A stretch of DNA of 39,905 nt from Cyanophora paradoxa CCMP329 (taxonomy: Eukaryota; Plantae; Glaucophyta). Below the pieces are notes generated by a model. That model saw nothing but the letters and a program-made list of their open reading frames with translations, was not told the origin of the DNA and searched no databases. The stretch spans positions 1 through 39,905 of the forward strand of contig QPMI01000548.1 of NCBI GenBank assembly GCA_004431415.1, in the 5' to 3' direction. Shown here in pieces: positions 1-36,158 of the stretch (within the stretch, counting starts at the first letter, position 1; each line of letters opens with the position of its first letter). The translations under genes were made by a program, and so were the position numbers.

Positions 1-1568
1 CGGCCTTCTCGGAGCACGGCGGCGAGGAGGGCGATCTGCATGGTGATGGCGGAGGGCCTCGACCCTAAGGCCTGCTCGGAGGAGGAGCTCAAGATGCGCT
101 CCGGCGACGCCTACTCCCCAACTTCAAGAACGTCGCGGCGACGATGTGCGCACCAAGGCGACGCGCAAGGTGCTTGTCATCGTCTGCAACAGCTTCCCGC
201 AGGTGCGCCCGTTCCCCTGCCCCCTTCCCCTTCCCCGGCGCCCTTTCTCACTTGCCCCGGCGCAGGCTCGAGAACCGCATGCTCGAGTTCTTCGCCCGCG
301 TGTCCTGATCCCCTCGACCACAAGCCGGCCAAGAAAGCGCACCTACCTCCACTCCGACATCCGAGAACGAGCTGCCGGCGCTCATGGTCGCGGCCTTCAC
401 CTTCGCGTGGAAGATCATCACGCGCTCTCCGACGGCAAGGCCTCCTGCATCCAGGCCTTCGAGCCGGCGTGGCTGCGGGCGCAGCGCCTCGGCTTCTGGC
501 AGGAGACGGCCTCCTGTCCCCTCACCCGCTTCATCATCACCCACTGCGCCGTCGACCCACCACCTACGTCGCCGCCCCGAACACGGAGGGCTACATGACG
601 AGCGTCGCGGGCATCGTCGAGTACATCGCGCGCACGGAGGCCCCGACACCTCCGCCGCCGTCGGCGCCGACATCGAGAACGGCCGGCTGGACGAGACCTC
701 GCCGGCTTCGGCTCCTGTGCCGCCTCTACTCCTACAAGCTCGGCGGCGTCTGGCAGACCTACATCCGCGGCATCGTCCCAAGGCCCCGCTCTCCCTCGGC
801 GAGAGCCAGCCGGCGCTGGAGGCGATCGCGATCCCCGTCGCCCAGTTCAAGGACCCGGCGCCCGACGTCGGGCCCTTCCTCGTCAAGCCCCACACCAAGG
901 GCAAGGGCAAGCGCACCCGCAACTCGGCGCCGGCCTTCCTCCCGCCCCAGCCCCCGCCACGGCCCCCAGCAGCGCCCCGGCCAGCAGCGCATCGACGAGA
1001 TGCTGCCGCGCCAGGTCCGGCCCGCGTACCCCCGCCTTCCCTCCCGTACCCCCCTCCCCCGCCCCCTCCTGATCCAAGGGCAGGGTACCCGACGAACGGC
1101 GGCGCGGGCCCGAGCGGCTACGGGAGCTCGGCCTCCTCCGCGAGCGCCGACGGCCCCAGCCCCTCCCGGCCCCGGCGCCGTCCTCACCGCGATCCAGGCT
1201 TCGGGCCCAGCAGGAGGCCGAGCGGCGGGCGCTGGCGGCGCGCCAGGCGCGCGAGGCGGAGGAGCGGCGCCAGGCCCTCTGGCCCAGCGCCTGCAGGCCA
1301 CCATCGCCTTCCGCGCCGAGCTGGACTCCGGCTTCCGCGCCGGCCAGATCGCCGGGCGGAGGCCTCGGAGCGCTGGCGGGCGTTCGAGGCGGAGTCGGCG
1401 GGGCTGGCGAAGGGCCTCGGCTACAGCTACCGGCGCGTGCCCGTGCTCAAGGACTACGCGTCGGCCGCGGCGCGGGAGGCCTCGCGGGCGGAGATCGACG
1501 CGGCGGAGGAGCAGGCGGCGCGCGAGGAGGCCGAGGACAACGCGCGCTTCCGGCACCTGCACCACTGA
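1..1568 (+). CDS. D5-like superfamily 3 helicase, C-terminal part, with Pro-rich linker; frameshifted and intron-containing
   Basis: Joined frames give ICMVMAEGLD (Walker B-like), ELKMRSGDAYSPNFKN, KVLVIVCNSFP (motif C Asn), RVLIP and ENELPALMVAAF, in the order typical of D5 helicases; stop at 1566-1568. Confidence 0.6.
203..265 (+). other. Putative 63-nt GT-AG spliceosomal intron in helicase gene
   Basis: CAG|GTGCGC ... C/T-rich ... CTCAC branch-like site ... GCGCAG|. Confidence 0.6.
1015..1083 (+). other. Putative 69-nt GT-AG spliceosomal intron in helicase gene
   Basis: CAG|GTCCGG ... C-rich ... CTGAT branch-like site ... GGGCAG|. Confidence 0.5.
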
Positions 1569-1616
1569 GGCCCGAGGCGGTATTTTTTCTCAACCCTCCC
1601 TCAATTCGGTCCCGCG

Positions 1617-1804
1617 ATGGCCTTCGAAGCTTATCCTGCCCACTACTCGCTAGGAGCGCTGGCCGCGACCCTCACCTGGCTCCTCGGCGGCACCCCACGG
1701 CCTCGGCGGTCATAGGCGTGGGCTTCGGCTACGCCGCCAAGTCCCTCTACGCCCCCGGCGGCGCCTCGCAGGCGGCGGCCGGCATGCGCCCCGCCGGGCG
1801 CTAA
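1617..1804 (+). CDS. Small hydrophobic viral protein (one frameshift)
   Basis: ATG after TATTTTTTCT motif; MAFEAYPAHYSLGALAATLTWLLGG / AVIGVGFGYAAKSLY...GR*. Confidence 0.45.
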
Positions 1805-1898
1805 CTTTTCAAAGTTCATTCTCCCCTCCCCTTTTCCGAGTTCCGAGTCCGTTGGCGTTCCCTTTTAAATTTTCTTCATTCTCGTTACACGTTCGAAG

Positions 1899-2376
1899 AT
1901 GTCGAGCGCGGTAGAGAAGCTGCTGTGCACCGTGTTCAAATCGGATTCGCGATGCAGCAAGATCGGCGAGGCGGCGAGGGCTAAGGGCGGGGCGGCGGCG
2001 GAGGGGCCCAGGGTGAAGGCGGCGGATCCCGCGCCGCCGTCGCTGAAAACGATCAAGGGGGCGGGCAAGGGCAGGAGCGTGGGGGCGCTGCCCCTCGTGG
2101 CGATCGCGCCGGGGCAGAGGGAGGCGGCGCACGCGGCGACGGCGGCGCTGGCCGCGCGGCGGCAGGCGGAGGCCTACCCGTGCCTGGGCCGGGGCTGCAC
2201 CCGCCGGCCGCCGCCCCTACGCCGTGAGCGCCTACTTCGACGAGGCCAACCGGCTGAGCTGCCAGGAGCTGTGCGACAACCGCATGCGGCGCGCCGTGGA
2301 CGGGCACCTGCCGCTGCTGGTGGCGCTGGGCGGCTCGCTCCTGATGGTCTGGTACCTGCGCGGCCTGGTCATTTAG
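1899..2376 (+). CDS. Hypothetical protein with C-terminal transmembrane helix (frameshifted)
   Basis: AAATTTTCT motif upstream; shifted C-terminus ...LSCQELCDNRMRRAVDGHLPLLVALGGSLLMVWYLRGLVI*. Confidence 0.5.
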
Positions 2377-2402
2377 ATAGTTTTTCGAAGTCTAGGTCAA
2401 AG

Positions 2403-4241: not shown

Positions 4242-4904
4242 GCGTCATTTACGTCCGCGTCATTTACGTCACGGAGTTTGCCGGCGACTCGGGACTCGGG
4301 CCCAACTTCTCCCGGTAAGTTCGAGACTTGAACTCGGCGGGGTACCCCCGGTGTCCTAGTGTCCTAGTGTCCTAGTGCTACTAGCTAGGTGGTATCGATA
4401 TCTAGCTAGCTAGCGCTAGCGCTTGCTTAATTAATTAACCTGAAGGGTCGCGTCATTTACGTCAGCGTCATTTACGTCACGGAGTTTGCCGGCGACTCGG
4501 GACTCGGGCCCAACTTCTCCCGGTAAGTTCGTCACGACCAGTAGCTACTAGTACCGCTAGTACTACGTAGTACTACTTAGTACTACTTGGTACTACTTAG
4601 TACTACTAGCTTAGTACTAGTAGCCACCGATACTGGTACAGCTTTTATAGATTTAAGCATTCATTCAATGTGAATAACGATAATAGTAATAATAATAACG
4701 ATAAGTAATAGGGATACCCTATTTTTCCAAGTCTCGAACTTACCGGGAGAAGTTGGGCCCGAGTCCCGAGTCGCCGGCAAACTCCGTGACGTAAATGACG
4801 CTGACGTAAATGACGCGACCCTTCGGTAACCTCCGCAACCCTTCAGGTAAATGTCAGGTAACTTCAGTTGAGTTAATTAAGCAAGCGCTAGCTAGCTAGA
4901 TATC
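4242..4904. repeat. Composite repeat (candidate replication origin): ~90-bp unit in two direct copies (4242-4330, ~4450-4531) and one inverted copy (4728-4824), around 10-bp tandem repeats and an AT-rich core
   Basis: Near-identical GCGTCATTTACGTC(C/A)GCGTCATTTACGTCACGGAGTTTGCCGGCGACTCGGGACTCGGGCCCAACTTCTCCCGGTAAGTTCG; outer inverted arms ~4397-4434 and ~4873-4904. Confidence 0.9.
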
Positions 4905-5548
4905 ACAGCTCTACCTTGCCCAAGTTGATGGTATCTAGCAGGGCCTGCTCCTCCAAGTCTGCACCGCCGCCGCCGCCCAGCGCTAGCGCTAGCTCGATAC
5001 CGCCTCCGGCTTGATCTCCCTTGGCTCCAGCCACCTGAGGGCTCAGGCCACCTCCTCCTGGTGAAGCCGGTATCGTTGCTCTTGTCCAGCTTGAGGTAGC
5101 GGTAGGGCGCCGGCGCCGGCCAGTCCGGCCTGTGGCCGCTTGCCTCCTTGGCTATGTCCTTGGGCCTACGCGGTCGCAGGTCCGCCTTGGCCTTCGCCCT
5201 CTGCAAGGGCCCAGCGCCTTGAACTTCGGTGCCTTGGTCGCCGGCAGGGCCTTCGGCTGGGGCTTCACCGCCTTCGGCTGCTGAGGCCTTAGCTGCTTCG
5301 ATTTCGGCATACTTCTTGCTCATAAATGAGAAAAGCGCCTCGAAGTCGGCCTTTATCTCCTCCTTGGTCCAGGATGTCACCTGATCCGGGTCACCTGAGA
5401 ACGGCGCATCGAACGCCACGTGGAGCGATTTGCAGGCCTGAGCTATCATTGGCTCGGGCCAGGCCAGCTCGATCAGCTGAAGGTAGATGTTCAGGGCCTT
5501 GTCGAGCTTGGCGCCCTGAGAGACTAGCTGGGAGATAGCGGGCTCCAT
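4892..5548 (-). CDS. Hypothetical protein embedded between repeat copies
   Basis: 218-aa ORF with helical N-terminal domain; ATTTTCTA motif just upstream; 3' end uncertain. Confidence 0.55.
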   Translation of the reverse strand: MEPAISQLVSQGAKLDKALNIYLQLIELAWPEPMIAQACKSLHVAFDAPFSGDPDQVTSWTKEEIKADFEALFSFMSKKYAEIEAAKASAAEGGEAPAEGPAGDQGTEVQGAGPLQRAKAKADLRPRRPKDIAKEASGHRPDWPAPAPYRYLKLDKSNDTGFTRRRWPEPSGGWSQGRSSRRRYRASASAGRRRRCRLGGAGPARYHQLGQGRAVISS

Positions 5549-5633
5549 GGTACAGCAGAGCTTTAGAAAATGGCGCCAAGTCCAAGTCCTTTTTTACGGG
5601 CGAGGCCTGGGCCGGGGGCCAGGGCCGAGTCCC

Positions 5634-5686
5634 AACTCCGTGACGTAAATGACGCTGACGTAAATGACGCGGACGTAAATGACGCC
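5634..5686. repeat. Fourth, partial copy of the repeat unit: three GACGTAAATGACGC iterons
   Basis: AACTCCGTGACGTAAATGACGCTGACGTAAATGACGCGGACGTAAATGACGCC. Confidence 0.85.
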
Positions 5687-6195: not shown

Positions 6196-6990
6196 ATGGC
6201 CACCGTCCGCAACGCCAACGAGATCGACCCCGCCAAGCTCGCCTTCGAGATCGACGCCACCGGCCGCATCAAGGCCAAGTACGACGGCCTGCAGGGCCTC
6301 ATGATGTACGCGCCGCCCATGGTCACGATCAACCCGTGCATCAACACAGAGCAAGGCAAGGCGTGGAGCGACGAGAAGAAGGCCTTCGTCATGGAAGAAA
6401 ACGGCGGATTTTACACGCTGGACCTCACCGATCTCAGCGCCGTCGACGGCCAGACGAACCCAGCCGCGGACGAGTTCCTCAAGCTGCTGGAGGCCCTGGA
6501 CGCGAAATTCTGCGAGTTCGTGCAGCAGAACCAGGCCAAGCTCAAGGTCTCGCCCGGCCGCTCCCTCTCCAAGGATCAGATCTCGGTGCTGCAGACGCCC
6601 AGCGTGCGCATCAAGGTCGACAAGGAGTCGGGCCAGGCCTTCTACAAGTACCTCAACATGCGCATCCGCACCCAGACGATGGCGGGCAAGCGCAAGACCG
6701 TGCCCGTCGTCGACATGTCCAACTACCTCATCACCGAGCGCGCCACCATCGGCACCGGAGACCTGGTGGCGGCGCTCATTAAAATCGACACCGCCTACGC
6801 CATCCCCGAGGGCAAGTTCGGCCTCAAGTGGTCCTTCCTCGCCGTGCAGCAGTGCAAGGTCGGCGCCTTTCGCTTCGCCGGGCGCGCCCCCGAGCTGGCC
6901 TTCAAGCCCTACGACAACGAGGCCGATTTCGAGCCCTACCTAAACCCCGAGTCTATGTACGCAGCCCCATGCAGTAGCTCGGACGAATAA
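6196..6990 (+). CDS. Single-stranded DNA-binding protein (NCLDV / T7 gp2.5-like OB fold)
   Basis: Intact 264 aa; IKAKYDG..LMMYAPPM, YTLDL, FLKLLEALDAKF, VAALIKIDTAY...GKFGLKWSFLAVQ and an acidic tail, the layout of NCLDV SSBs. Confidence 0.7.
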   Translation: MATVRNANEIDPAKLAFEIDATGRIKAKYDGLQGLMMYAPPMVTINPCINTEQGKAWSDEKKAFVMEENGGFYTLDLTDLSAVDGQTNPAADEFLKLLEALDAKFCEFVQQNQAKLKVSPGRSLSKDQISVLQTPSVRIKVDKESGQAFYKYLNMRIRTQTMAGKRKTVPVVDMSNYLITERATIGTGDLVAALIKIDTAYAIPEGKFGLKWSFLAVQQCKVGAFRFAGRAPELAFKPYDNEADFEPYLNPESMYAAPCSSSDE

Positions 6991-7030: not shown

Positions 7031-7833
7031 TCAAAGGCCGTTGAACTTGCCGCCCACCGCCCTGGGCTCCGCCGCCGTCGAGGCCGCCGCCTCCGTCACC
7101 TCCTTCATTACCTCCGGGTTCGCGTTCGCCGCGTGCACCGCCAGCACCGTCTGCACCAGGGCCATCCCCAGGCGCGCCTCGGGCCCCAGGGTCACGTAGC
7201 GCGAGTACTTAATCACCAGCTCCTCTAAGATCGGCTGCACCTGGTCCATCGAAGAGAGCGTCGCCTGCCCGAGCCCGTCGAGCTTCAGGCCGATCGGATC
7301 GTACGCCTTGTTCAGGTGCTCCAGCGAGTGCATGCCCGCGATCAGAAAGAGGCGCGCCGCCTCCAGCGAACCCCGCGTGCTCAGCTCGCGCTGAATCTCC
7401 TCGTACTCTTCCTTCAGCTCGTCCAGCGGCGTGGCCAGGCTCAGCTTCTTCGTGGACGTAAGCTCGCCCCCGAACGAGCGCCGGTACTGCGCGATCTGTC
7501 GCAGGACCTGCTTCTTCTCGTCCACGTCCACCTGCGCCTCGTCCCGCGGCCGCTCCTGCAGGTCGATTCCCAGCGCCTTTTTCACGCTCTGCTCCTTCTT
7601 CTTCGTCATTTCGATGTGCTCCTGCACGCTGAAGCCCGCGCCCTTGCTCGGCGCCGTCGGCGGCACCGCGGGCCCGTCGCCCGGCAGCGCCATCCTGTCG
7701 GCCTTCGGCGCCTTCTCCCCTTTTCCTTGCCCTCCTTCGCGGGGCGGCCCTTCTTCCGGGGCTGCGGGATTCCCACGGGGTTCGGCCCGTCCACGGCCAG
7801 CGCCTCGAAGCCAAGCATCGCCGAGGGGTCCAT
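7031..7833 (-). CDS. Conserved NCLDV-type hypothetical protein (DUF5767-like); frameshift near 7720
   Basis: LDELKEEYE...LEHLNKAYDPIGLKLDGLG...ILEELVIKY...GPEARLGMAL...VH resembles a widespread NCLDV family; N-terminus from ORF 7606..7833. Confidence 0.6.
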
Positions 7834-7862
7834 CCTTTACGCCTGCCCCTTAGAAATATTTT

Positions 7863-8192
7863 TCACTCCGAGGTCAGCTCGACGAAGAGCTCGATGTAAA
7901 GCCAGAGCTTCTCGCGCAGCTCGGGCCCGCTGCCGTAGAAGAGCGAGCGCACGGCCGAGGCGTACTCCTGCGGCAGCCTCTCGAAAACCGAGTCGTCCTT
8001 CGCCTTGATCAATTCCGCCTCCGCGTTGATGTGCCTCCTGAACAGAACGATGACCGCCGTGGCCCCGATGCCGCGCAGCGACTGGATCTGCGCCCGCACC
8101 CCCGGCTCCTTGGCCTCCGGCTCCAGCAGGTCGAGGAAGCGGCCCCAGCGCGCCTCGATTTGCTCGCCCAGCGTCGCCTCCGTCGCAGCCAT
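7863..8192 (-). CDS. Small helical NCLDV-like hypothetical protein
   Basis: Intact 109 aa; LIKAKDDSVF...REKLWLYIELFVEL pattern recalls small NCLDV proteins. Confidence 0.55.
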   Translation of the reverse strand: MAATEATLGEQIEARWGRFLDLLEPEAKEPGVRAQIQSLRGIGATAVIVLFRRHINAEAELIKAKDDSVFERLPQEYASAVRSLFYGSGPELREKLWLYIELFVELTSE

Positions 8193-8211: not shown

Positions 8212-9407
8212 TTAGCGTCCGCCGCTGCCGCTGCCGCTGCCGCTGCCGCTGCCGCCGCCGCTGCCGCTGCCGCCGCCGCTGCCGCCGCCGCCGAGGAGGG
8301 CGTTTGCCGCTTGCTCGTACATTGCCGCCTTGCGCGCGCTGGTCTCGCGGAGGAGGGTGGCCTGCGCGGTCTCGGTGCCCTTCACGAGAGCCTGGAAGGC
8401 GGTTTGAATCGTGGTCTGGCTGCGCTCACCGGTGCCTGCCATTCCGGCGACGGTTCCCAGGCCCCGCAGCCCCGCAATCGAGCCTAACGTTGCGGTATCC
8501 GCATAGGGTCGGCTTCCTACGGCCGGATTCACGACGGCCGGCAGCAGGTTCTGGTCCGCGTACGGCGTCGCCGTCGCCAGCGCGGGCCCGCGCGTGCCGA
8601 CCTGATCCATGAGCATCGCCCCGAACGGGTTGCCCCGGCTGAAGTCCACGTCGTTGCGCCCGTAGGGCTTGTTGACGGCGCTGCTGATGTTGGCCGTCTG
8701 CGCGTTGAACATGGGCGAGAGGTCGGGGGTGTAGCCCGCGCGCAGCCCCTGGGGGTTCTCCGTCGTCTGCCCGTAGCGGCCGGCCGGCCCGAGCAGGTTC
8801 TCCTTCTCGATCTCTTCCATCGTCTTGATCCAGCCGCGCTCGCGCGCCCACTTCATGACGAGATCATCGTAGTTCATCGGGAAGAAAACCTTCTGGTACT
8901 TGTCGAAGCGCTGAATTTCGATATCCTGCTCGATCATGTTTGTAATTCGCTCCAGCAGCTCGGGGTAATATTCCTCGAGCATTTTGGCGACGCCCGGCTG
9001 CTTCAGGTCGAAGGCCGTCATCGCCCACTGGTCGAAATCGCGAATCATGATTTCCTTCCGCAGCACGAACGCATTCTCGACGTCCTCCTCGCTGATCTGT
9101 CGGCTGGGGTAGGTGTTCTGCAGCTGCTGTCGGATGCCCATGCGCATCAGCTTCTCCATGGAGGGCGTGTACTTCATCGCGGGCAGGGTCTTCGTATTCC
9201 CCCGCTGAGCCCCAGGCCACGTGCCTGATCCTCGGGCGTGTAGACGTCCGCCTTTGTCCCATCTACGACGGGCACCTCGGGCATGACCGTGCCCGGAAGG
9301 AACTTGTTCACGATGCCGTCCATGTCGGCCTTCAGGTCGTTCTTCAGCGACTGGCGCTGCTTCTTAGAGCCCTCCCCAATGTCCATCATAGAGTGGCCCT
9401 TCGTCAT
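8212..9407 (-). CDS. Hypothetical (possibly structural) protein with Gly/Ser-repeat tail; frameshift at ~9200
   Basis: ORFs 9174..9407 and 8212..9177 join via LSG/NTKTLPAMKYTP; (GCCGCT)n at 8219-8293 encodes the GS tail; lies directly downstream of MCP. Confidence 0.6.
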
Positions 9408-10917: not shown

Positions 10918-12883
10918 CTACGTTATTAGAGGGCGCGGCCCCCGTCGCGCCAGGTCCGCGTCGTACGCCTTCTTGCGGAGTGCGTCCGTGATCGCAGACC
11001 AGTCGCGTGTGCCGTTAAGATAACCCAGGGCAAGTCCTTGGCCCAACATGAAGTAACGCTCTGGATCCAAGTTCATGAGTTGCTGGGCCCGCTCCTCTAC
11101 GCGCCGCACACGCTCCATAAAGGGGCCCTTTGCCGCAGATCCGAGCGGGTCCGCTTCTCGCTCAGCTTCGAAGAATTTCACGACATCCCCGCCCAGGTCC
11201 GAAATATCACGGTGCTGCTCTGCTATCCGTGCCTGTGCCTTGTTGACTCCAGCTGCCTGGGCTTGGGCTATCGATGCCAGTTGGTTGTAATCGATTTCTT
11301 CTGCAAGGTATTTCGCAACGGCGGCGTCCCCTGCAGCGCGCGCGATTTCGGGCGATACGCTCACAAGGAATCCCTCCCGGCGAGCCCGATTGGCCGCGCG
11401 CTCCGCTTCCGCCTCCTCGTCCATGGGATCGTCTGGACTGGCTGGATTGCCTGGAGCACCGGAGCGAATTTTCTTCAGCAGCCCCGCACGGCGAGCTTCT
11501 GTCGCCTCTTTCACCTTCTTGGCGGCCAGTTCAAGCGCATCGTTTAAGTCCATCGTCGTATACCCGGGTCTCCGCCCCGTATCCTTGTACGCGGCCCTGC
11601 GCTTGTCCATGGCTTCCATCTCGCGCGGGACGAGGGGGCGATTTCTATCCCCGCGTTTGCGAGTTGAGCCTGGACGGCGACGGGCACCCGCTCGAGCACG
11701 GCCCTTGCCGCCGCAACGGCCACCGCCTCGGCCGCCACCACCTCTGGCGGGCGCGAGGGCCCCGCCTGTGGCTCGGGCGGCGGCGGGGTGGCGGCGGGGC
11801 GGCGGCGGGGGCTGCTGCTCCGCTGGGGCGCCGACGGCCGGGCCACCGTGTCCGGGGGCTGCGAGGGCCGGGCTGCGGCTGCAGCGGTGGCGTCTTCGGC
11901 CCGGGGGGCGGAGGCGGCGGAGGCGGAGGCCCCGGAGGCGGGGCCCCCCCTTCGTTGTCGGAGTCTGACTCGATCATTTCGTCTCTGGGTTCCTTGGATG
12001 GCAGGGCCTTCTGAATGAGGGCCTCGCGCGCGCCCTTGCCCGCCTTGATTGCTCTGCCCATGGCCGCCTCCGGGAAACTGGCCTCGATGGCCTCGTTGTC
12101 CCCGTCCGTGATGCGCACCTTCTGCTCGCGGCGGGCCTTGATGTACTGTTCCTTGTCCATCCGCTTCTTCGCCCGCCTTTTCTCCCTGGGTACGTCGCGC
12201 TGGCGGCTCTCGTCCGGCCCCGGCCCCTCGCTGTCCGAGCTCGAGGGCGGCTCGGCCTGGGCGAAGGGCTGGCGCGTGTTGCGGTTCGTCCAGTCGGGGT
12301 CGTACTTCCCTCCGATCAGCTCCTCGGGCTTCTTGTTCTCGCGCGCGTAGATGCTCGTGGGCTTGAACTCCTCGCCGTTGATGATGTACTTGTAGTAGTA
12401 GTACGCGTCCTCGAGGTTCATCGGGCCCAGCGTCTCGAGGCGCTTCTTGCGCTTCAGGAATTCGGTGATCTGATCCTCCTTCGACTTGCAGAACTCCCGC
12501 ACGCCCGGCAGCACCGTCAGGTTCTTGCCGTCCACGTCGCAGGCGCCCGCTCCCTTGGCCTTCAGGTTCGCGGTGAAGGCCGACTGGCCCATCAGCCAGG
12601 CGCGGAAGCCCTCCTCGTACTCCTCGTCGAGGCTCGACTCCATCTGCTGGAACTTGTTGATGTAGTACGCGTTGGCGATGGCCTGCGCCTCCACCTCGGC
12701 GAGCTTGTCCGATTGATCGCGCTCCTCGAACCGAATTTCCGGCGTGGCCCTCGCCAGCGCCGTCTTCATCAGCTGCTGAAAGTGCGCGTACTTGTCGCTC
12801 TCGAAGGGCGTGATGTGCGAGTCCCCGCCCCCCGGGATCGCGAGCACGTTGCGCGGCGCGAAACGCGAGGCGAGCCCCCTCAT
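10918..12883 (-). CDS. Large hypothetical protein with central Pro-rich linker (frameshifted)
   Basis: ORF 11645..12889 (from ATG 12883) joins the 11544 frame and ORF 10918..11619; globular N-domain with FRAWLMG..LPGVREF..GPMNLEDAYYYYKY. Confidence 0.55.
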
Positions 12884-14795: not shown

Positions 14796-14828
14796 CCCAG
14801 GGTCGCAAGAAAATCTGAATGAAGGGGG

Positions 14829-21721: not shown

Positions 21722-22171
21722 ATGTCCTGCGTCAACCTCTACGTCCAGTCGAACGGAGAGACGCAGGATTCCGAGGGCTTCTGGCGCCTCAGGCTGAACC
21801 AGATCCCCGCCGACATCGACACGCTGCAGATCAAGGGCGTCTACCTGGAGCTGGACACGACCGCGATTCCGGACCCCACCGCCGCGAAAACCGTCAACGT
21901 TCTGCTGATGGACGTGCCCGACTTGAACGTCACGACCATCTCGAACGTCAACACGTGCATCAACAAGGTCGTGATCCCGACGTGGGGCCACGACGGCCTC
22001 GAGAACACCATCCTCTACTGGTTCGAGGTGCCCATGGCCGTGCGCCCGAACTACGTCGCGTACGACAAGTTCCAGGAGCTGCGCGTGCGCTTCACCGACA
22101 TCACGGGCGCCACCAAGAAGAACAACGCCTTCATCGTCAAGAACTTCGGCCTCTGGGCCTTTGCGAAATAG
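21722..22171 (+). CDS. Probable minor capsid (penton, single jelly-roll) protein
   Basis: 149 aa, beta-strand pattern; C-terminal FQELRVRFTDITG resembles PLV/NCLDV penton ends; precedes the fibre cluster. Confidence 0.45.
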   Translation: MSCVNLYVQSNGETQDSEGFWRLRLNQIPADIDTLQIKGVYLELDTTAIPDPTAAKTVNVLLMDVPDLNVTTISNVNTCINKVVIPTWGHDGLENTILYWFEVPMAVRPNYVAYDKFQELRVRFTDITGATKKNNAFIVKNFGLWAFAK

Positions 22172-25600: not shown

Positions 25601-27774
25601 CGCCACCGCCGACGCCCTTGCCGATTTCGACCTCGAGCGATTCACCACCAAAGAGCAGCGCGACGCTTCCTGGGGCGCCCGAGGGCAGGCGGCCCGGGGT
25701 GGCCAAGGAGGCCTTCAGCGCAGAGACCCTCTTCTCCGCGGGGTACGGCGAACAACGACGGCATGTCTTTCGGGGCAGCCGATTTATTTCAGGGGGCGGG
25801 CATCGACTTGGTGGGCGCCGGGCTGGGGGTACGGGCTCGCGGGCCATGCGGCGGGCGGGCGCGGCGGCGGCGGCCTTGGGCTGGCGACGGCGGCGGCCTG
25901 CTCTCGGCCTACCAGGCGCTCTCGCAGGGCAAGATAGGGGAGGCCGAGTTCTTCGATACGTTCCGCGATCAGATGATCATGACGGTCGGCTCCTTTGGCC
26001 TTCAGACGGGCATGTCGTCCGCCCTGAGCGCCCTCACGAAAATGAGGATCGGCACGGTGGGCGGACTTGGCCTGTCCATCCTCGCGGGCGCCATCGCGCA
26101 GGTGATCGTGGATATCATCAACGGGCGCAGCGCGGAAGAAATCGTGAAGAACTTTTTCAAGTACCCCGTCGACTGGGCGACCGACACCATACAGTTCATC
26201 GCGGAGCTCTCGCAACAGATCTACGACTGGGGCGTCGAGACGTGGGGCGACGAGGCGAGCCAGCTGCGCAACCGAATTAATCGGCTGGAGGGCGAGCTGG
26301 GCTCCGGATTTTTGGGTGTGTACGACCCCTCGGAGGCGCGCGAAATGGCCTCGCTCTTGGCCCAGGAGCTGCGGTTAAACGAAATCAAGGAGCCGAAGGA
26401 GCTGCAGGCCTTCATTCGCGCGCTCGACAACAGCATCAACGATTACCGTACCCCCAAGGACCAGAAGACCCTGCTCGAAATCGATCGCGCGACCGTGCTC
26501 TTCCTCTCCCAGCTCACCGTTAAAATGCAGGAGGGCTTCGGGTCGACTTCGCTCGCCCTGAGTCGACTTATGCGCGACCTGAAGCAGATGATAAAGGAGG
26601 AGACCAAGGGCGGAAGCGCGTCTTAATTGCCGTCTACCAGGAGGGCCTCAACAGGATCAATCACATCGAAGCCCTAAGGCGCGAATTCGGCTCGGCCATC
26701 CGTCACTCGGGCGTCTCGTCGAACGGAGGGGCGCAGGTGGCCCGCCTGGCGGACGCCAACTCGCGCCTCGAGATTCCCGGGACCTTCCGCATGCAGGATT
26801 GGTGGGAGGCCGAGGCCTTCAGGAATTACGGGGCCTTCATAGACAACGGGATCAATTCGCAGAGCCCCAAGGCAAACTGGCTGGTACCCAAGGCCTACGT
26901 CGATAAATTGGTTGACAGGCCTGCAGCACCATACACCAAGAAGATCGCCAAAGGCATCGAGTACTGGGCGCCCGAGCCAGGCCAGCCCGTGTTTGCATCG
27001 CAGAACTACGAGTGGCACATGGCGCCGGGGGCGAGCCAGGCCGTGAGCACCGTGGGCGTTGCCGTGCCGCAGCTGGCGACGGTGGCACACACGGGGCGTA
27101 TGCAGATCTCAGCGGGAGGCCGACGATACCCGTGATACCAACAACGTGGGCGTGGGATAGCATCACGGGGAAGCCGAGTACGTATCCCCACGCAGACCAC
27201 CAGCACACCATCTCTCAGATCAGCGACTGGACGGCCCCGGACTTGACGAACATCTCCGTGGATTGGGACAACGTAACGGGCAAGCCACTTACCTTCCCCC
27301 CTCTACACACAGTCACAATGTGTACTGGGATAATGTCATCGACCGACCCACTTCCTTCCCACCCTCTACGCACAGTCACACAGAGTACTCGCTCACCAGC
27401 CACGGGCACAGAAACGTGAACATGGATGCGTACATAACGCACGGCACGTCCTTCCACTCCTACGCTGCGTACACGGAGTTTAACATCAATTCAACATACA
27501 CGGTGACGTTCAACATTACATTCGGACAGGCGTACGACACTGGAGGCGGACTGGGACCCCAGCAAACCCAACGCCGGTTATTAACGTAACCCCCTCGTTC
27601 GACATCAATCCCGGCGGCAGCACGGATGTCGATTTCTACGGGGCCAACGTCACGGCGGTGAGTCACACTGGCTTTACAGTTAAAGTGAGATTCCAACCCA
27701 GAATGACGGTCACGCCCACCCAAATTGTCCAGCTTTTTATTCATTGGACCGCGATCGGCAAGCTGCTTATGTAA
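22693..27774 (+). CDS. Giant (~1,700 aa) fibre / tape-measure-like protein; multiply frameshifted
   Basis: Successive frames give HxH tail-fibre repeats (KHPHVKADITDWAHRH; WDSITGKPSTYPHADHQH; WDNVTGKPLTFPPSTHSH), a Gly linker, long coiled coil, hydrophobic Gly/Ala helices and a C-terminal lectin-like beta domain ending FIHWTAIGKLLM*; no internal promoter motif noticed. Confidence 0.55.
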
Positions 27775-27798
27775 TCGATTTTCTGATGCAATCCAAAA

Positions 27799-28851
27799 AT
27801 GTCGGTCGCTGTCCCTCTATTTACCTATGCTGCCAGCGTGAATCACAAGGGCGATCACACGATTAAGGAGACCACCCTCGGAAACCAGGCCACCGAGGCC
27901 CCTACAACGCCACGGCCGTCCCCTTTCCGAGGCCGACCTCGTCCGCGTCGGCGAGCTGCGCTGCGACAAGATGCGCACGCGGAGGGCGGGTCGGCCGTGC
28001 CGGGGCGCGTGAGGACGCAGAGGCTCACCGTCACGAACGGGCCTGGGACGGGAGCGGGTACACCACGAATCAGGTGACCTTTAATGGGACTGTGAACGGG
28101 AGGGGAATGCGGCTCTGTATGTGCAAGGAGGCGGAGCAAACGTGGTGGGGGGCTTAGGGTGAGCGGGGCTTCAAACTTGGCGGGCATCGTTACATTGGAC
28201 GATAAGCTGCAAATTACCGGAACGTCACCGTACATAAATGGCGTGGTTCAGGCGTAGCTATAAAGTACAACGAAAACGATAGACTCCTCTGTGGGACTCT
28301 TGGCGTTGGTGTTACAGGTACTCTATTTACCTCGGCAATCGAAGGCCCTACTAATGGCCTAAGCATAGCAAACACTTCAATCGTTGATAGCGGAAGCGTC
28401 AGCTCTGGTCTATCCTTGAGAAACAACGGCACCGAACGACTGCTGTGCGGAACCGTCGGCGTTGGCATCACGGGTCGGCTCATCGTCTCGACGCTCACGG
28501 CGATGGAAACCGAGCCGTTTATTCGGATGCTCAAGGATACCTGACAAACTCGTCGAGCGATAGCCGCCTGAAAGAAAATGTCGCGAGCATGTCGGGCATT
28601 CTCCCTCTTCTGCTGCAGCTGAATCCCGTGTCGTTCACCTGGAAGAACACATCCTCGGGGGTTCGAAAACGGATTACGGTCTCATCGCACAGGAAGTCCA
28701 AGGCGTCTTCCCGAGTCTCGTTTTCGAGAACGCGGATGGATTTCTCGGGGTAAACTACGACAGGCTCATTTCCCTGTCGTTGAAGGCAATTCAGGAACTT
28801 TCACAAGAAGTTCAAACTCTCAAAGACCAGGTAGCGGCACTGGCGAGCTGA
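27799..28851 (+). CDS. Fibre protein with C-terminal peptidase S74 intramolecular chaperone (frameshifted)
   Basis: SSDSRLKENV...LNPVSFTWK / DYGLIAQEVQGVFPSLV...GVNYDRLISLSLKAIQEL followed by coiled coil. Confidence 0.8.
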
Positions 28852-28871: not shown

Positions 28872-31003
28872 CTACACCGCGAGTATCACAATTCGACCGT
28901 TGCCACCGTCGCTGAAAGACGAGCCACCGTTGCCGCCCCTACCAATGCCTGCTGCGTAGTGAGCGTCTCCGCTATTTCCTGCCACCTGGCCGGACCCAGG
29001 ATACACCGTAGCATCCGTCAAGTTTCCTATGTAGCTCGAGCCACCGCCACCTCCAAACATTCTTGCTATTGGGTTCTCTGACACTCCGCTCCTGCTGGAC
29101 CCAGAGCCTCCACCGAAGTAACCACCACCACCACCACCACCGAACCTGTAGCCGCTTGAATCAGGCCCAGTCTCTCCACCTTGGCGCAAAGTTCCCGGGT
29201 TGCTGGCCTGGCCCCTGAGGCCACAACACCGGCTCCGCCAGCGGTTTGGGTGCCTCCTTGAGCCGGTATCTCTCCGGTTACTCCAACCAACCCAGCCGCA
29301 CCACCGGTCAACCCCCCGCCTACTCCCCGCCGCCATTCGAATCACATGTACCCCCACCTCCGGCCCCTGCAACAACCAAGTCGGTCCCTGCAACGCGCTG
29401 AATTGCAGAACGACCACCACCGGCGCCGTTTTTGTACTCCGGATCGACGCTATGGCTCCAGCCCCTTCCACCACCTCCGTAGACGGTAGCAGTGGCAGTC
29501 CCCGATACACCCTTTGGGCCGCCGCATCCAACAACAAGGATGAGCGTCTCCCCGAGGACACAGCCAATGTACCAACTACGCAAGCACCCGCGCCTCCACG
29601 GACCCCGTACCTGCGCGTTCTCCGCCTCCACCCCCGGCCGCCCATACGATGACACGCACAGCCACAGTCCCCGTTGGTACTACGAAAGTCTGGTCGGCCC
29701 GGTGTAGGAGAATGTACCCAAAACAGGAGCGTTTGCAGTTGTTGCACTGGCAGACGAGGACTGAGGGCCTTCCTCGCCGATCTGGTTGACGCCCTTGATG
29801 GTGTAAGTGTAAGTGGTTCCGTAAACGGTCGTTGTGTCCGAAAAGGGCTGCTCGTGTCGCTGGCAAGGAACACGCCACCCCTGTAGATGTTGTAGGAGAC
29901 GGTGACGCCCGTCACCGGCACCGACCACTCGAGCACAACAGGCTGTGCTGCCCCCGCCGCGGGGTTGCAGTGAGCCCAGTGGGCGCCCCCGGGTCCGTGG
30001 TGACGTACGCCGCAATACTCTTCGGCCCCTCCCCTCCCGTGTTCGTCGCGGAGATCTGGTACTCGTACCCTGTACCCCAGACGGTGGTCGTGTCGCTGTA
30101 GGAGTTGGTCGCGGAGTCTGTGAGGTAGGCCCCGTCTCTGTAAATCTTGTATCCCGTCGCTCCCGTGGACGCAGTCCAGCTGAGGCTGACAGGCTGCTGC
30201 TGGTCGTTGGGTGCTGATGCCGTCACGTTCGTGGGGCGTTTGGCATAGTCCAGACCAGGAGCGGATCGGACTTGTCGTATTCGACACCGCCCACGATGCC
30301 GGCCACCTGGTAAGAGTATTCCGTGCCCCACGTAAGAGCAGTGCTATCGTCAATGTACGAGGTAGACAGGGCACTGCTCGCAAATCCGATTGGCGTACCG
30401 TTCCTGTAAATTCGAATCGAGTCCGCGCCCTCCATGGCCACCCAGTTGATTGTGACGACTATGGCGGGTTTCGGGAAGCCCGAAGACGCGGGCCGCCCCG
30501 GCAATAAAATCGCCGTAGGTCTGGGCCGTGGCGGTCGTGAGCGTGGTGTAGGCTTCGATCTGCGGGCTGAAGCCGCCTATGCCTTGGAAGAGAATGTAAT
30601 TGCTCATGGCACCCTCGTGGGTGTAGAGAAGCGACTGTGCGTAGGTTGTGGGCGGGGCTTTGCCATCAGAGCCCGTGCTGCTGCTGCCCTGTTCGCGAAC
30701 CGCCGCCACGCGGTAGAGTCGCTGGGCCCCCAAACTAAAGGGAGAGTCCGTGTAGGTGACGGTTGGCGCATTCACCGTGGCCACGAGATCCCAGGGGCCG
30801 TTGATGCTGGTCGCCCTGTACACCTTGTACTTGACGGCGTTGGTGACCGCGACCCAGTTCAGCTGAAAGCCGTACGTACTGTTCCCGTTGTTGAGCACGG
30901 AGCCCGATCGCACCTGGGGCCTGCCCACAGTCAGCGAGATCGGCTCCACGCCATACTGCGGAGCCTGCACCACCTGCTTTTTCACGAATACGAAGCGGGG
31001 CAT
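28872..31003 (-). CDS. Fibronectin type III repeat protein with C-terminal glycine-rich domain (frameshifted)
   Basis: About four FN3 units (LSWTASTGATGYKIYRDG...YSDTT...YEYQISATNTGGEG), then AAGGGG...GGGGGGYFGGGSG...GGGGSSYIG...GGNGRIVI. Confidence 0.75.
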
Positions 31004-31042
31004 TTTCCTCTACGATCCGAAAAAATATCTGCCCCGGGGTAA

Positions 31043-31723: not shown

Positions 31724-31746
31724 TCTTTCTCATTTGAGGTCGCAAA

Positions 31747-32558
31747 ATGCCGACCACCTCGGCCACCATCGTGAAGACCGTGTCTGCCGGCTCGATCGTC
31801 CCCGATTTCTACGGCAACGCTGGAACGTGGCCAACGCAGGGACGGACAAGGTGGAGTGGGACGGAAACTACGCCACCCCGCTCACCGTGAGGGTCCAGAA
31901 TCCCGTCATGTTGCGCGTCACCTCCAACGATTTCGAGAATCCCGCCTCCTGCTCCGTGTACGTGTACTTTGACATCGACTCGGGCGTGAGCGCGGATGAG
32001 GCGGAGGCGCTCTGGCTCTCGGGCCTCCTGAAAAAGATAGAGCCCTCTGTGCCTGATCGGCCCGCCATTCGCGTGCTCGAACTCAAGTTCACCGCTAACA
32101 CCGCCCTCACTCGCAAATTCGGGAATGGTGCGAATCCGAACATCAAAACGCATTTAGATGGCGCCCTCATCGATGCCACACACAAGACCACGCAGGCCGT
32201 TCCCTTTGAGATGTACAACCTCTGGAAGATGACCGCAAAGGAGATGATGACGAATGCCACCACGGGCGGCGCCTCGGGTACCGATTATTCATACGGCGCC
32301 TCGAATCCCCGTACCCAGGTCTGGCCCCGGCTCCTCTTCACGAAATTCACTTTCAAATTGTACAACAACATCGCCGGAATGCCTACCTCTGGAATGGTCG
32401 TGGGCTCTACCCTCATGGCCGAACTAATTGAGGCAGAGGCGGACTACACGACTGCGACTACCAACTCGACAGCGCCAGGCGCCGGAGCCGAAGTTTACGT
32501 GGCCTGGGAAACGGTTGGTCGCGAGTACGACACCAAGATTCACACCACTAGCGTCTAG
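31747..32558 (+). CDS. Hypothetical beta-rich protein, paralogue B (5' frameshift)
   Basis: MPTTSATIVKTVSAG joins ORF 31695..32558; QNPV, SGLLKKI, NPR..PR..FT.F.F motifs shared with paralogue A. Confidence 0.65.
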
Positions 32559-32913
32559 ACTGGCTAAGCTGCATTAGCGCCTGTGCCGCCTCCATCATCT
32601 CCCGAATCTCCTCGCTCTTCTCCTGTAAATTGGCGTACCCCCTCCTCTTCTTGCGAATATCCGACATTGATGCCCAGCGCAGGTTCTCCCTCCTGTAGTC
32701 CAGCGGGTTGCCGTTGATGTGTTCCACGTAGCGTCCACGTGGCGACTTCCCGAGGATCAGTTGGGAGAGGTAGTGCTTGCGCCCTCCAAACGTCTTGCTC
32801 ACCCTGTCCCTGTCCACTCTCCAGGGAAACTCCAAGGCACTCGGGGGTACGTCCGAGTTGACCAGGACGTTGTAGGCGACGTCTTGCGAGTCGGTGCACC
32901 GGAGCAGGGCCAT
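32548..32913 (-). CDS. HNH endonuclease-like protein (phage HNH_3 type)
   Basis: HYLSQLILG...YVEHINGNPLDYRRENLRW. Confidence 0.7.
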   Translation of the reverse strand: MALLRCTDSQDVAYNVLVNSDVPPSALEFPWRVDRDRVSKTFGGRKHYLSQLILGKSPRGRYVEHINGNPLDYRRENLRWASMSDIRKKRRGYANLQEKSEEIREMMEAAQALMQLSQSRR

Positions 32914-32934
32914 TTTGCCCTAGGTTCAGAAAAA

Positions 32935-33455
32935 CCTGGGACTTGGGACTTGGGACTTGGGACTTGGGACTTGGGAAGAGTTGAAACCCAGGTCCCGGCC
33001 CAGACTTTCTCCAGGATCAGAAATTTGTCAGACAAGTCAGGTGAGTTTTTCTACCGACTTTTTACTCCTACCACCCTCGTACTCTTTTTTACTCGTAGTC
33101 TTTTTTACTCGTATCCCATCTCGTACCCTCCTTCTCTCGACATCTCGCACGAATACTCCTACCCCTCTTCACATCCTTTTTCGGTTGCATACTCTCGTGA
33201 GCTTTCATGTCCAGTATCATGCTACAAGTCGTACACCAGTTCAGACTCTACCTCGCTTGAAATCTCACCTGGAATGTCACCAGAAACGTCGTATCCAAAT
33301 TTCCGTACCCCTTTCTAAGTCTGCCCGGTGGTTAGGGACTTGGCACGGCAAACTCTCAGATCCAGAGAAAGTCTGGGCCCAGACCCTGAGTCTAACTCTT
33401 CCCAAGTCCCAAGTCCCAAGTCCCAAGTCCCAAGTCCCAAGTCCCAAGTCCCAGG
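32935..33455. repeat. Imperfect ~105-120 bp inverted repeat whose outer parts are (ACTTGGG)5 and (CCCAAGT)7 arrays
   Basis: CCTGGG(ACTTGGG)5AAGAGTT..GGCCCAGACTTTCTC at 32935-33038 versus its reverse complement at ~33337-33455. Confidence 0.9.
33109..33300 (+). repeat. Sixteen consecutive 12-bp units, each starting with TC and otherwise divergent
   Basis: TC at 33109 + 12n for n = 0..15. Confidence 0.8.
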
Positions 33456-33526
33456 ATCGCGCCAAGTCATAACTGAATAGTCGGCCAATTTTTACAAGTA
33501 TGTACAATGGAATGACGCAATACTAT

Positions 33527-34582
33527 TTACAGCATCTCAAAGTCAGAATCATCGTCATCGGAAACCAAGTCAATCGGGGCCTCGGGCGCGGACTTAAGGG
33601 GAATGCGGGGAAGGGCCTGCGCTGCCTGCACTAAGTCCTGCCGCTCCTGCTCGCGCTGCGCCGCCAAGGCCGCTGCCGCCTCTGCCTCGCGCCGCTGCTG
33701 AGCCTCGACGCGCGCCCTAAGTTCCGCTGCCTCCTTCTTCTTGCGCTCGGCAATCTTGGCCAGCGTCATCTCGCGACGAAGAAGGCGCTCGTGACGCAAC
33801 TTGCGCCGGAGTTCGGCCATTTCGCGCTTGGCGATGATGCGCTTCTCAATGGTCTTGACGTGCTGAGTCAGGCGCTTGCTGAAGTGTGACGTGACGCGAG
33901 AACGGGCAATGCCAGCGCCGATCTTCAAGTCTTTTTCGTGTTCCTTGGCGGGATTCTTGACTCGCTCGGAGTTGTCGGTGAATGACGTGGTCTCCATGAA
34001 CTTCTTCTTGACGATTGACTTGGTCTTGATAATGCGGCGCTTGCGAGTCGGGTTTTCGTTGTCGCCTTCAGAGTCGGAAGAGGACTCAGAGTCGTATGGA
34101 ATCGGCACGTCAAAGTCGATAAAGTCGTTGATGTCAGACTCGGCGTCAGAGGCCTCGGACTCGGCGTCATCGACTGGCTCGGGAGCGGGCTCGGCGACGG
34201 GCTGAGGGGCAGATGACGACGATGACGGAGGGGGGAAATTCGTGAAGACTTGAGGGGGATAGGCCCAGGCGAGCGTCTCGGCGGCAGACTCGGCGAAAAG
34301 CTTGGGGTCGCCCCAGCCAGTGGGAGTCTTGACCCAGCCGGGGACGGGGGGCACGTCGACGGGCTCGGGCTTGGGCTCGGGCTTGGGTTGCTTGGACTTG
34401 GGCAGAAGGGTGGATACAAAGTTGAGGTTGATGGTATGGAAGCCTTCTCCGCTGTGAGCTTGGTAGAGGTACCCCAGCTTGCGGGCACGCTTCTCCATTT
34501 CACGGGTAGGCCAATCGCGGGACTTAGCCCACATCTCACGGGCCTTGGCAAGGTCCTCGACAAGCTCAGAGGGAATCGACAT
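33527..34582 (-). CDS. Hypothetical charged/coiled-coil protein; possible 5' UTR intron at 34583-34641
   Basis: Intact 351-aa frame from ATG 34582; preceded by GTCCGC...CTGAT...TTTGCGCAG|ATG and by a GAATTTTCA motif. Confidence 0.6.
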   Translation of the reverse strand: MSIPSELVEDLAKAREMWAKSRDWPTREMEKRARKLGYLYQAHSGEGFHTINLNFVSTLLPKSKQPKPEPKPEPVDVPPVPGWVKTPTGWGDPKLFAESAAETLAWAYPPQVFTNFPPPSSSSSAPQPVAEPAPEPVDDAESEASDAESDINDFIDFDVPIPYDSESSSDSEGDNENPTRKRRIIKTKSIVKKKFMETTSFTDNSERVKNPAKEHEKDLKIGAGIARSRVTSHFSKRLTQHVKTIEKRIIAKREMAELRRKLRHERLLRREMTLAKIAERKKKEAAELRARVEAQQRREAEAAAALAAQREQERQDLVQAAQALPRIPLKSAPEAPIDLVSDDDDSDFEML

Positions 34583-35091
34583 CTGCGCAAAGGGAAGAGA
34601 GATCAGCAAAGGCAAAACGTGAGGTGACTGAGAGAGCGGACTTGTGAAAATTCGGAGAGGCGGGGATTCCTTGGGCTGAGAGAAGGCGGCGAACCCGTTT
34701 CAAGAGTGAGCCAAAATGGCGGCGGACCGCGGTTTTGTGGGCGATTTTTTTCGCGGTCTAGTTCGCAACGGAAAACGTTGCCAACTGGCCTGAAAAAAGC
34801 CAAATTTAGCGTTGGGCCGAAGGCAGAAAAAGGGAGCCGGCCTGACGGAAATCGCCCGAGTGCGTCCGCCGAAGGTCGAGTCTCGGGCCGGGGGTACACC
34901 CTCAGGGGCCCCCCCTGGCCCCTCACCCTGGTAGTACCCTCTCAAAGGGATTTTCGAAGCCGTACAATTCTTGGTAAGTCTCGTAATCCGGGCTGTACCC
35001 CTCACAATCTGCGGGAGCCCCATTGAAAGCCTCCGTCTATCCTCTCTCAATTCCCTGCGGAAAAGACTGCGGTCGCTTCGAGCTTCGCGCG

Positions 35092-35391
35092 TCACGCCAG
35101 CTGGGCGTGGTCTATGATTGTTAGGGTTGTCGTAGCCTGGCCCACCAGCCTCACGAAATTTTCGCGTATGGCCTCGGGGAGACTCTGGAAACGGTTCGTT
35201 GCGTGGAACTCAATCCATTCATTGAATCGACGCGGATATTGACGGATGACTTCAAGCACGCCCTGTAAGTTGGGCTCTGGTGTTACGTCGGGGATGTCAT
35301 GTCCTGTGAGGTGCCAGCGCCAGAACTCGCGCAGCCTCTCGAATGCCATATGCAACTCAAAGGGGAAATCGTAATAGAGATTGCCTGACAT
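35092..35391 (-). CDS. Hypothetical protein
   Basis: Intact 99 aa; AAATTTTCG motif upstream. Confidence 0.5.
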   Translation of the reverse strand: MSGNLYYDFPFELHMAFERLREFWRWHLTGHDIPDVTPEPNLQGVLEVIRQYPRRFNEWIEFHATNRFQSLPEAIRENFVRLVGQATTTLTIIDHAQLA

Positions 35392-35442
35392 TTTTCTCCC
35401 CGTCCGAAAATTTCCCCGCTTTTGAGTCTAGACTCTGATTCC

Positions 35443-35504
35443 AACTCTTCCCAAGTCCCAAGTCCCAAGTCCCAAGTCCCAAGTCCCAAGTCCCAAGTCC
35501 CAGG
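35443..35504. repeat. Third heptamer array, AACTCTT(CCCAAGT)7CCCAGG
   Basis: Identical to 33394-33455. Confidence 0.9.
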
Positions 35505-36158
35505 TCCCATTTTTCTCCCATTTTGACTCGAGATTTTGCCCAAGTCCAAATCCGGACCCGGGATTCGAACCCTCGTTTTCGATCGATTTCACGCGTGAAA
35601 AACGCACTTTTCGGCCTTTTCGCATTTATTTTCTCTACCCCGGCCCAAAATGGACCCCCTCCCCGAAATCGCGATCGAAAATGGTCGCGATCGTCTCGTT
35701 TTCGCGATCGTCGTGATCGGAATCGTCATCGCGATCGTCGCGATCATGGTGATCACCAGCCTCGTCTACGGTACCCCCCAGCTGTGACCCGGAGGTTATA
35801 AGAACCTCCGCAATCCAAGCGTCACTTCCGAGTCTCGAGCTCTCGGGGTTGACTTTTCGCGTTTGGCCCATTGTTGGCCCTCCTATATAGCTACTTACTT
35901 TAGCTAGCTTAACTCCCGTAAGTTCTAATTTTACGCATTCTACCTGGCTAATCACCTACTTCAAAAAGAGGGAGCGAGTACGCTCGCGCGGCATCGATAT
36001 CAAACACGCCGCCACGTTGAAAGAAGACTTCCGATTGAATCAATCAAAATCAAAGAACACGGCACTCAGAGGCGGGCGAAGGATCGCCTTGCCGTTCAAA
36101 ATTGAAAGCGAAGGGAGAGAAGGGGGAGGAAGAGAGGGAGGCGGGAAAAGCTGTACCC

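Follow-up and report, generated by a model that had tools for sequence, protein, structure and literature searches.

How a capsid-coding virus with no recognizable integrase comes to lie in the chromosome of an alga is the question raised by contig QPMI01000548.1 of the glaucophyte Cyanophora paradoxa CCMP329, a stretch of 39,905 nt (hereafter the window) in which 35.9 kb is a viral element and the rest is host flank. A preliminary description had read positions 1 to 35950 as a near-complete endogenous mriyavirus-like virus. The virus proved to be real, but short-read contigs placed its right end at 35882/35883 rather than near 35950, at least 3.1 kb of it lies beyond the start of the window, which cuts the helicase gene, and the host carries many more copies of it; that description had overlooked the existence of this multi-copy family, the fixed right end and the target word. 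Our analysis indicates that integration was very probably programmed rather than accidental. We tentatively favour, with not quite an even chance of being correct, a HUH-driven, target-specific integration of a young, multi-copy mriyavirus at the word TATATA.

Short-read contigs of four runs (X1, X6, X11 and X15) were aligned over positions 35520–37160 only, and 82–86 % of sampled words from 31000–39905 were present in fourteen DNA runs. X1, X6 and X11 each yielded one contig that begins at 35861 and reaches the window's right-hand end with zero differences and at flank depth (92, 106 and 86, respectively), which argues against the chimeric assembly raised earlier as a possible explanation. 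Further contigs departed from the window at 35889/35890, right after TATATA, and ran into differing continuations (at least six in X1, at least five each in X6 and X11, and at least one in X15). The word TATATA occurs once in the 39,905 nt, at the junction itself (start 35884), against an expectation of about 1–2e-5 per base. In X15, contig 18, which is spliced host sequence, matched 35883–37151 over 997 nt with no differences and then continued for 484 nt further left into non-viral sequence. X15, which may be an RNA run, additionally has a different end-plus-flank contig and no cover over 35520–35847, a gap to which we attach no weight. Contig 18 is the empty allele of the insertion site and, as it carries TATATA itself, this is the host target word. 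The virus sits approximately 280 nt inside the likely 3′ untranslated region of a host gene whose splicing is seen in short-read contigs, in keeping with the earlier remark that the element adjoins intron-rich host genes. The junction contigs and the empty site also bear out the suggestion of integration in a GC-rich protist or alga, as the host is GC-rich and the named relatives come from the glaucophyte C. paradoxa.

The element closes with a terminal module of two hairpins (Table 1). Hairpin folding of the last 100 nt was better than that of 200/200 shuffles on both strands (z −3.0 and −3.8); Rfam gave no match, and the window contains no inverted counterpart that would pair with the right end as a terminal repeat. 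Variant contigs split off exactly to the left of the first hairpin at 35790, with some sharing only the part to the right of 35829, and what these variants carry to the left of 35790 is similar to the sub-terminal part of the virus. An 8148-nt contig in X1, X6 and X11 contains a lone 61-nt end piece (window 35829–35889) surrounded by a run of TA; the locus is single-copy, and the piece resembles a one-ended insertion.

The named close relatives were all C. paradoxa proteins in EukProt, where clusters at 90 % identity held 12 members for HUH, 14 for the major capsid protein (MCP), 18 for the ATPase and 22 each for the single-stranded DNA-binding protein (SSB) and Mriya_48. Among the names listed, HUH genes were borne by at least 27 contigs, MCP genes by at least 26, helicase genes by at least 30 and any element gene by at least 82, and the copies were collinear by gene number (e.g. 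tig00021036 and tig00020824). The coverage comparison of virus and host pointed in the same direction: the sub-terminal contig (35592–35823) reached depths of 2488, 2064 and 1854 in X1, X6 and X11, about 20–27 times the flank, a ratio that is rough and not a strict copy number, yet consistent with the contig-based count. We estimate that the host carries the element in roughly 20–30 near-identical copies. Identity to the window's gene, among the copies listed, was 99–100 % for ten ATPases and 91–100 % for eleven MCPs, and this unevenness would be better explained by independent insertions from a selected virus population than by neutral duplication.

The 1.56 kb of helicase in the window departs from a full-length copy by 15 small frame steps, 13 of which are losses of 1–2 bases, with identity between the breaks mostly at 90–100 %, and single-base losses recur elsewhere in the element. 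Where consensus errors of long-read assemblies fall in repeats, they typically take the form of indels biased towards losses, accompanied by few substitutions, and from their sequence pattern the frameshifts look like long-read errors. One published C. paradoxa assembly was built from PacBio RSII reads and corrected with short reads by majority rule (PMC6704402), a procedure that we consider to handle repeats poorly. The reading frames of MCP, the ATPase core, SSB and HUH-1 are intact, and it is plausible that the element is functional. Genes of viral origin in C. paradoxa have been reported to be enriched in the methylated, mostly silent fraction of the genome (PMC12344493).

A search with the packaging ATPase identified 111 related loci from three collections, including loci classed as gamadviruses by Yutin et al. 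(NZEQ01000048, Ga0181408_1000174 and Ga0209337_1000251, the match of the last being presumed). Gamadvirus profiles were built from the ATPase loci together with six HUH/VLTF2-centred loci, and Mriya and PEV labels were transferred by gene order from Table S1 of Yutin et al. onto loci L030 and L026. These profiles matched 12 genes of the element (SSB, Mriya_48, PEV_20, Mriya_51, Mriya_1, RuvC, ATPase, a 114-aa gene, VLTF3, both HUH genes and, weakly, MCP), and four gene blocks stand in gamadvirus order (ATPase–114aa–VLTF3, Mriya_51–PEV_20–Mriya_48, Mriya_1–x–MCP and HUH–HUH_long). Both results uphold the label mriyavirus, Mriya_1, Mriya_48 and Mriya_51 being specific to Mriyaviricetes, and every gene that had been named in its support (MCP of nucleocytoplasmic large DNA virus (NCLDV) type, A32, VLTF3, A22/RuvC, SSB, SF3 helicase and two HUH endonucleases) was present by Pfam, gamadvirus profiles or motifs. 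In the window, VLTF2, PDDEXK and Mriya_50, which many but not all mriyaviruses carry, gave no match with gamadvirus profiles of 28, 70 and 49 sequences, respectively; profile–profile comparison (19 pairs) was negative for the gamadvirus minor capsid protein, VLTF2, Mriya_50 and small PEV genes, and PEV_8, 12, 14, 15, 22, 27, 34 and 35 were not detected, although small divergent genes may be missed. VLTF2 is also listed as absent from Phaglo_G and many Yaraviridae in Table S1 of Yutin et al. (PMC11253617).

The phylogenies were less decisive. In the ATPase tree, a quick tree with no outgroup, a single long branch separated the three Cyanophora rows from the 44 relatives sampled. The MCP likewise formed a long branch in a tree that included neither named Yaraviridae nor NCLDV outgroup loci, and its grouping with 16 gamadvirus MCPs (approximately unbiased test, P=0.57) was neither shown nor rejected. 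A further search for outgroups gave 78 loci that were apparently gamadviruses again. The match of this short, very divergent MCP to the gamadvirus profile was weak (E 0.002). Its predicted structure (pLDDT 70.7), based on an alignment of 33 sequences with NCLDV-like MCPs among them, is a double jelly roll whose best match was a PBCV-1 capsid chain (Z 36.0, rmsd 2.5, 351 aligned residues); capsids of PBCV-1, faustovirus and iridovirus gave Z 33–36, compared to about 19–20 for virophage and PRD1 capsids. Modelling from the single sequence gave a pLDDT of 31.6, and sequence searches of the PDB with the MCP and helicase returned nothing useful.

Judged by its genes, the element is a member of Mriyaviricetes that lies near, but not inside, the core ‘Gamadviridae’. 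It resembles that family in its MCP, ATPase (43–53 % identity), VLTF3 (34–42 %), RuvC, SSB, duplicated HUH, Mriya_1/48/51, PEV_20 and 114-aa gene, as well as in the four gene blocks, an upstream TTTCT motif and its size class (PMC11253617): the visible 35.9 kb plus at least 3.1 kb of absent helicase portion fits the 35–45 kb range of mriyavirus genomes. In contrast to gamadviruses, which have SF3_hel2, it carries a D5-type helicase, and further differences are the undetected VLTF2, PDDEXK, Mriya_50 and most PEV genes, the short, divergent MCP (462 aa), a much shorter second HUH, the glaucophyte host and a defined integration end. Phaglo_G from Phaeocystis globosa (10.1101/2022.07.28.501842), compared by description only, is likewise a high-GC gamadvirus-like algal scaffold with SF3_hel1, SSB and HUH_long but no VLTF2, and is described with short tandem repeats at its flanks; it differs in being listed, in Table S1 of Yutin et al., with PDDEXK, Mriya_50 and a minor capsid protein, and without Mriya_48 or a short HUH, and the accessible text on it mentions no target site. 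Polintons, Polinton-like viruses (PLVs) and Zoravirus-type elements are also multi-copy endogenous capsid viruses of protists with fibre genes (10.64898/2026.06.19.733378; PMC12220804). However, the Cyanophora element shows in the window no pPolB, rve or tyrosine recombinase, nor the terminal inverted repeats with 5–6-bp duplication of Polintons and PLVs, has VLTF3 and an NCLDV-type MCP, and is larger than the 20–30 kb of the Zoravirus group. Its VLTF3 and MCP fold point away from PLVs.

A further trait shared with gamadviruses lies upstream of the genes. The motif [AT]TTTC was found within 45 nt upstream of 25/30 listed ORFs, and at 13–26 nt in 23 of them, compared to 11 % of random windows, in a list of ORFs that was partly picked after the motif had been seen. 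Independently of the window, TTTCT was the top 5-mer upstream of gamadvirus genes (246/573, redundant loci). TTTC(T) is likely to be a promoter or initiator shared with gamadviruses, as far as its position and recurrence suggest; a bacterial promoter scan was uninformative.

The replication genes comprise a helicase, an SSB and two HUH endonucleases. The part of the helicase inside the window (residues ~1037–1519) contains Walker B-like, B′ and C motifs and the arginine finger, with Walker A just left of the window, and full-length copies carry all five. It is of D5/DUF5906 type (ESM score 0.97, with the ten best family matches concordant; Pfam DUF5906 marginal, E=0.038) and forms the C-terminal domain of a large protein, as do mriyavirus SF3/SF2 helicases. 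The gamadvirus SF3_hel2 profile had no match in nine full-length copies or the window, and NCBIfam and PHROGs scans of the helicase, as well as phage tblastn, returned nothing useful. Two GT-AG segments (203–265 and 1015–1083), both multiples of three, are excised in the gene models of other copies and are likely spliced introns; removal of the first leaves 15 residues between motif C and the arginine finger, a spacing close to the D5-type norm. Within the helicase family two types were seen (P0103/P0104 and P0091), with 75–78 % overall identity compared to 89–97 % inside the main type, which suggests recombination or two viral lineages. HAH and Y-x2-K are retained in both HUH-1 and HUH-2. Two environmental HUH proteins, P0007 (ENA) and P0010 (JGI), share 69 and 57 % identity with HUH-1, and on this sequence evidence the HUH lineage also exists outside the Cyanophora assembly; IMG/VR contained no free relative of this Cyanophora lineage or of its terminal hairpin.

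How might such a virus reach its target? The element shows traits of HUH transposons such as Helitrons, IS91, IS200/605 and Replitrons, namely a Y1/Y2 HUH enzyme (Y1 in this likeness), a sub-terminal hairpin near the end and a short specific target, and HUH transposons employ terminal hairpins and short targets (PMC10288648). None of them, however, is a ~40-kb capsid-coding virus, and transposase activity of the Cyanophora HUH is only predicted. In the proposed mechanism, a chromosomally integrated copy would replicate in the nucleus by rolling circle, as proposed for Mriyaviricetes, with host RNA polymerase II transcribing and host DNA polymerase copying it; host polymerases are suggested because there are no viral polymerases, introns are likely and the TTTC(T) element, possibly read with VLTF3, stands 13–26 nt before start codons. 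HUH-1 or HUH-2 would nick at the hairpin of the end, one strand would be peeled off by the SF3 helicase together with SSB, and strand transfer would join the fixed, hairpin-bearing end to a host TATATA, as in IS91, Helitrons and Replitrons. In a copy that escapes silencing, RuvC would resolve genomes and A32 would package them into double-jelly-roll capsids. This route is supported by the fixed end, TATATA, the many sites, the empty allele, the hairpins, the intact-looking HUH domains and the lack of an integrase in the 35.9 kb. It is also possible, though on the doubtful side, that this ~40-kb virus doubles as a rolling-circle transposon, with its duplicated HUH Rep as a TATATA-specific transposase, mobile in cultures and reactivatable in its glaucophyte host.

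Several observations weigh against HUH-driven integration. HUH genes are found in all mriyaviruses, including free-living ones, and so cannot by themselves account for integration. The filled junction contigs reach only 23–29 letters into the element, below the 31-letter bridging threshold, although such a short overlap is what word-based assembly can yield at the end of a multi-copy repeat, and the empty allele is known from one contig of one run. The unseen left end could, in addition, encode an integrase or PolB or carry a target duplication. A conventional integrase, either a tyrosine recombinase or rve encoded in that left end or acting in trans, might recombine a viral circle junction with host TATATA. 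The mriyavirus-related VC102, VC218 and VC134 are reported often to carry rve or tyrosine recombinase (10.64898/2026.06.19.733378), and the lone end piece is flanked by TA left and right, which also fits a crossover core or a duplication. We regard this as the main rival, though less likely than the HUH route; none of the ORFs scanned in the window matched an integrase. That scan covered 225 window ORFs in all, including the 150 longest (≥64 aa) of 208 extra ORFs (≥52 aa) from unannotated regions, and 0/225 matched families of DNA polymerase, RNA polymerase, integrase, recombinase or transposase, although shorter frameshifted fragments may escape. The preliminary reading of no visible polymerase or integrase was thereby sustained, for the window only in the case of PolB, RNA polymerase and integrase.

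Another explanation is capture: the virus would travel as cargo of a host family of DNA transposons that target TA and to which the terminal sequence belongs, in the manner of the virus–transposon fusion known as Teratorn. TA targets are typical of Tc1/mariner transposons. The last ~50 nt of the element reach a contig depth of 7000–8000, about 75–80 times the flank and three to four times the element body, so that the end could be shared by a larger family of mobile elements, and the variant contigs share only the part to the right of 35790 or 35829. However, the variant sequence left of 35790 looks viral, the at least 82 contigs with element genes are enough for an ~80-fold end and no transposase was among the scanned ORFs, which together make this capture quite improbable. 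That host repair inserted viral DNA by accident and segmental duplication then multiplied it, or that the assembly joined free virus and host into a chimera, is far less credible and in our view largely refuted. Where insertions of Nucleocytoviricota type have no mobility genes, accident is how they have been explained in print (10.1101/2025.04.19.649669), and the window does begin inside the element and contain many indels. Yet a single insert that was later duplicated is excluded by the differing flanks beyond one precise end, by the rare target word common to them and by the empty allele, and the three-run junction contigs described above speak against an artefact.

The remaining features of the window are collected in Table 1. 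The hydrophobic 114-aa gene, which seems to fall outside the numbered clusters of the published mriyavirus table, overlaps the tail of VLTF3 in L030 (10927–11268) and 98 other gamadvirus loci. Repeat sets A (TGACGT-type 15-mers) and B (7-mer GGG-containing arrays) stand just upstream of or around small ORFans near both ends. Set A is likely, from its repeat units, to consist of promoter/enhancer modules, and both sets may be enhancers bound by host factors, or else cassettes that can invert. The idea that two separate elements meet at set A was ruled out, as helicase, SSB, MCP, ATPase and HUH are collinear in other copies. Further into the flank, 37900–39905 on the minus strand holds a host gene with many introns whose product is a long coiled-coil protein.

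Table 1. Coordinates of the viral element, its insertion site and the adjoining host gene in the 39,905-nt window
Feature	Position	Strand	Evidence or remarks
D5-type SF3 helicase, 3′ third of ~1500-aa protein	1..1568	+	motifs, ESM, alignment to other copies
Repeat set A, 82–90-nt direct and inverted copies	4242..5685		4242–4330, 4442–4531, 4735–4824, partial 5634–5685; 15-nt TGACGT-containing units
SSB, homologue of gamadvirus PEV_26	6196..6990	+	gamadvirus SSB profile E 2.9e-22
Mriya_48/DUF5767 envelope-like protein	7031..7833	-	Pfam; gamadvirus profile; main ORF 7031–7693, start at 7833 in other copies
PEV_20 homologue	7863..8192	-	gamadvirus profile E 7e-6
Mriya_51 homologue	8212..9177	-	gamadvirus profile E 3e-8
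MCP, NCLDV-type double jelly roll, intact 462 aa	9487..10875	-	Pfam Capsid_N 1.4e-8; predicted fold
Mriya_1 homologue	11645..12883	-	gamadvirus profile E 2e-9
RuvC/Pox A22-like resolvase	14320..14853	-	Pfam 3e-5; gamadvirus profile
A32 packaging ATPase	15056..16125	+	Pfam Pox_A32 6e-5; gamadvirus profile; intact core ORF 15208–16125, start at 15056 in other copies
Hydrophobic 114-aa protein	16538..16882	+	gamadvirus profile E 9e-9; between ATPase and VLTF3, conserved there in gamadviruses
VLTF3 late transcription factor	16883..17710	-	Pfam 2.7e-24; gamadvirus profile
HUH endonuclease 1 (Y1 Rep, motifs I–III intact)	17942..18784	+	motifs; gamadvirus profile
HUH endonuclease 2, counterpart of gamadvirus HUH_long, HUH domain C-terminal	19213..20834	+	gamadvirus profile; possible start 18806; frameshift near 20220
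Candidate minor capsid protein, 149 aa, lead only	21722..22171	+	score 0.87; no match to gamadvirus minor capsid protein
Fibre-like gene pieces, Peptidase_S74 chaperone at end	27161..28851	+	Pfam
Fibronectin-III/glycine-rich surface-protein pieces	28872..31003	-	Pfam (fn3)
Two neighbouring ORFans of 226 aa and ~270 aa	31043..32558	+	found in many copies
HNH endonuclease	32548..32913	-	Pfam
Repeat set B, 7-mer arrays in ~80-nt direct and inverted copies	32934..35509		32934–33011, 33365–33455, 35423–35509; brackets ORFs 33527–34582 and 35092–35391
Terminal module, 8-bp perfect hairpin 35790–35810, second hairpin ~35828–35848, end ...GGCCCTC(C)	35790..35883		contigs; folding
TATATA target word within palindrome CTATATAG	35884..35889		sole TATATA in window; also in empty allele
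Host gene	35890..37151	-	spliced; ORF stop near 36161

Mriyavirus-like elements of glaucophytes have been reported previously. Regions related to Mriyaviricetes have been described as embedded in a Glaucocystophyceae assembly, where such insertions are read as mainly accidental, and the legend of a Mriyaviricetes MCP tree in the same source indicates a coloured glaucophyte branch (10.1101/2025.04.19.649669). These regions very likely belong to the same element family as the one studied here; the accessible text does not describe their end, target, copy number or mechanism. Other sources report giant-virus-like insertions in C. paradoxa (PMC12344493), list Cyanophora PLVs (PMC12220804), describe Phaglo-G (10.1101/2022.07.28.501842), add free Yaraviridae (PMC13768754) and state that integration genes are absent in mriyaviruses (10.64898/2026.06.19.733378), while Replitrons are given as not detected in glaucophytes in the accessible part of PMC10288648. 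The main text of Yutin et al. (PMC11253617) contains no mention of Cyanophora, glaucophytes, integration or endogenous forms, two supplements to it none of Cyanophora or glaucophytes, and the main text of PMC10120064 none of Cyanophora. In the searchable literature, with most subscription papers outside this scope, we found no work that describes how mriyaviruses integrate, the site they target or the sequence of their ends. What our study adds is the fixed end, the target word, the empty site, the copy number and the upstream motif shared with gamadviruses.

In summary, no living model may come closer to the ancestor of giant viruses than the mriyaviruses, whose replication has only been inferred. 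The present element offers a culturable alga with dozens of young copies whose end is exact, together with the word they target and an unoccupied allele, which opens bench access to the function of the duplicated HUH and to chromosome entry by integrase-less Nucleocytoviricota. The terminal hairpin is a candidate origin or attachment site, and TTTC(T) a candidate promoter motif across the gamadviruses. For this lineage, the findings challenge the reading of such insertions as accidental.

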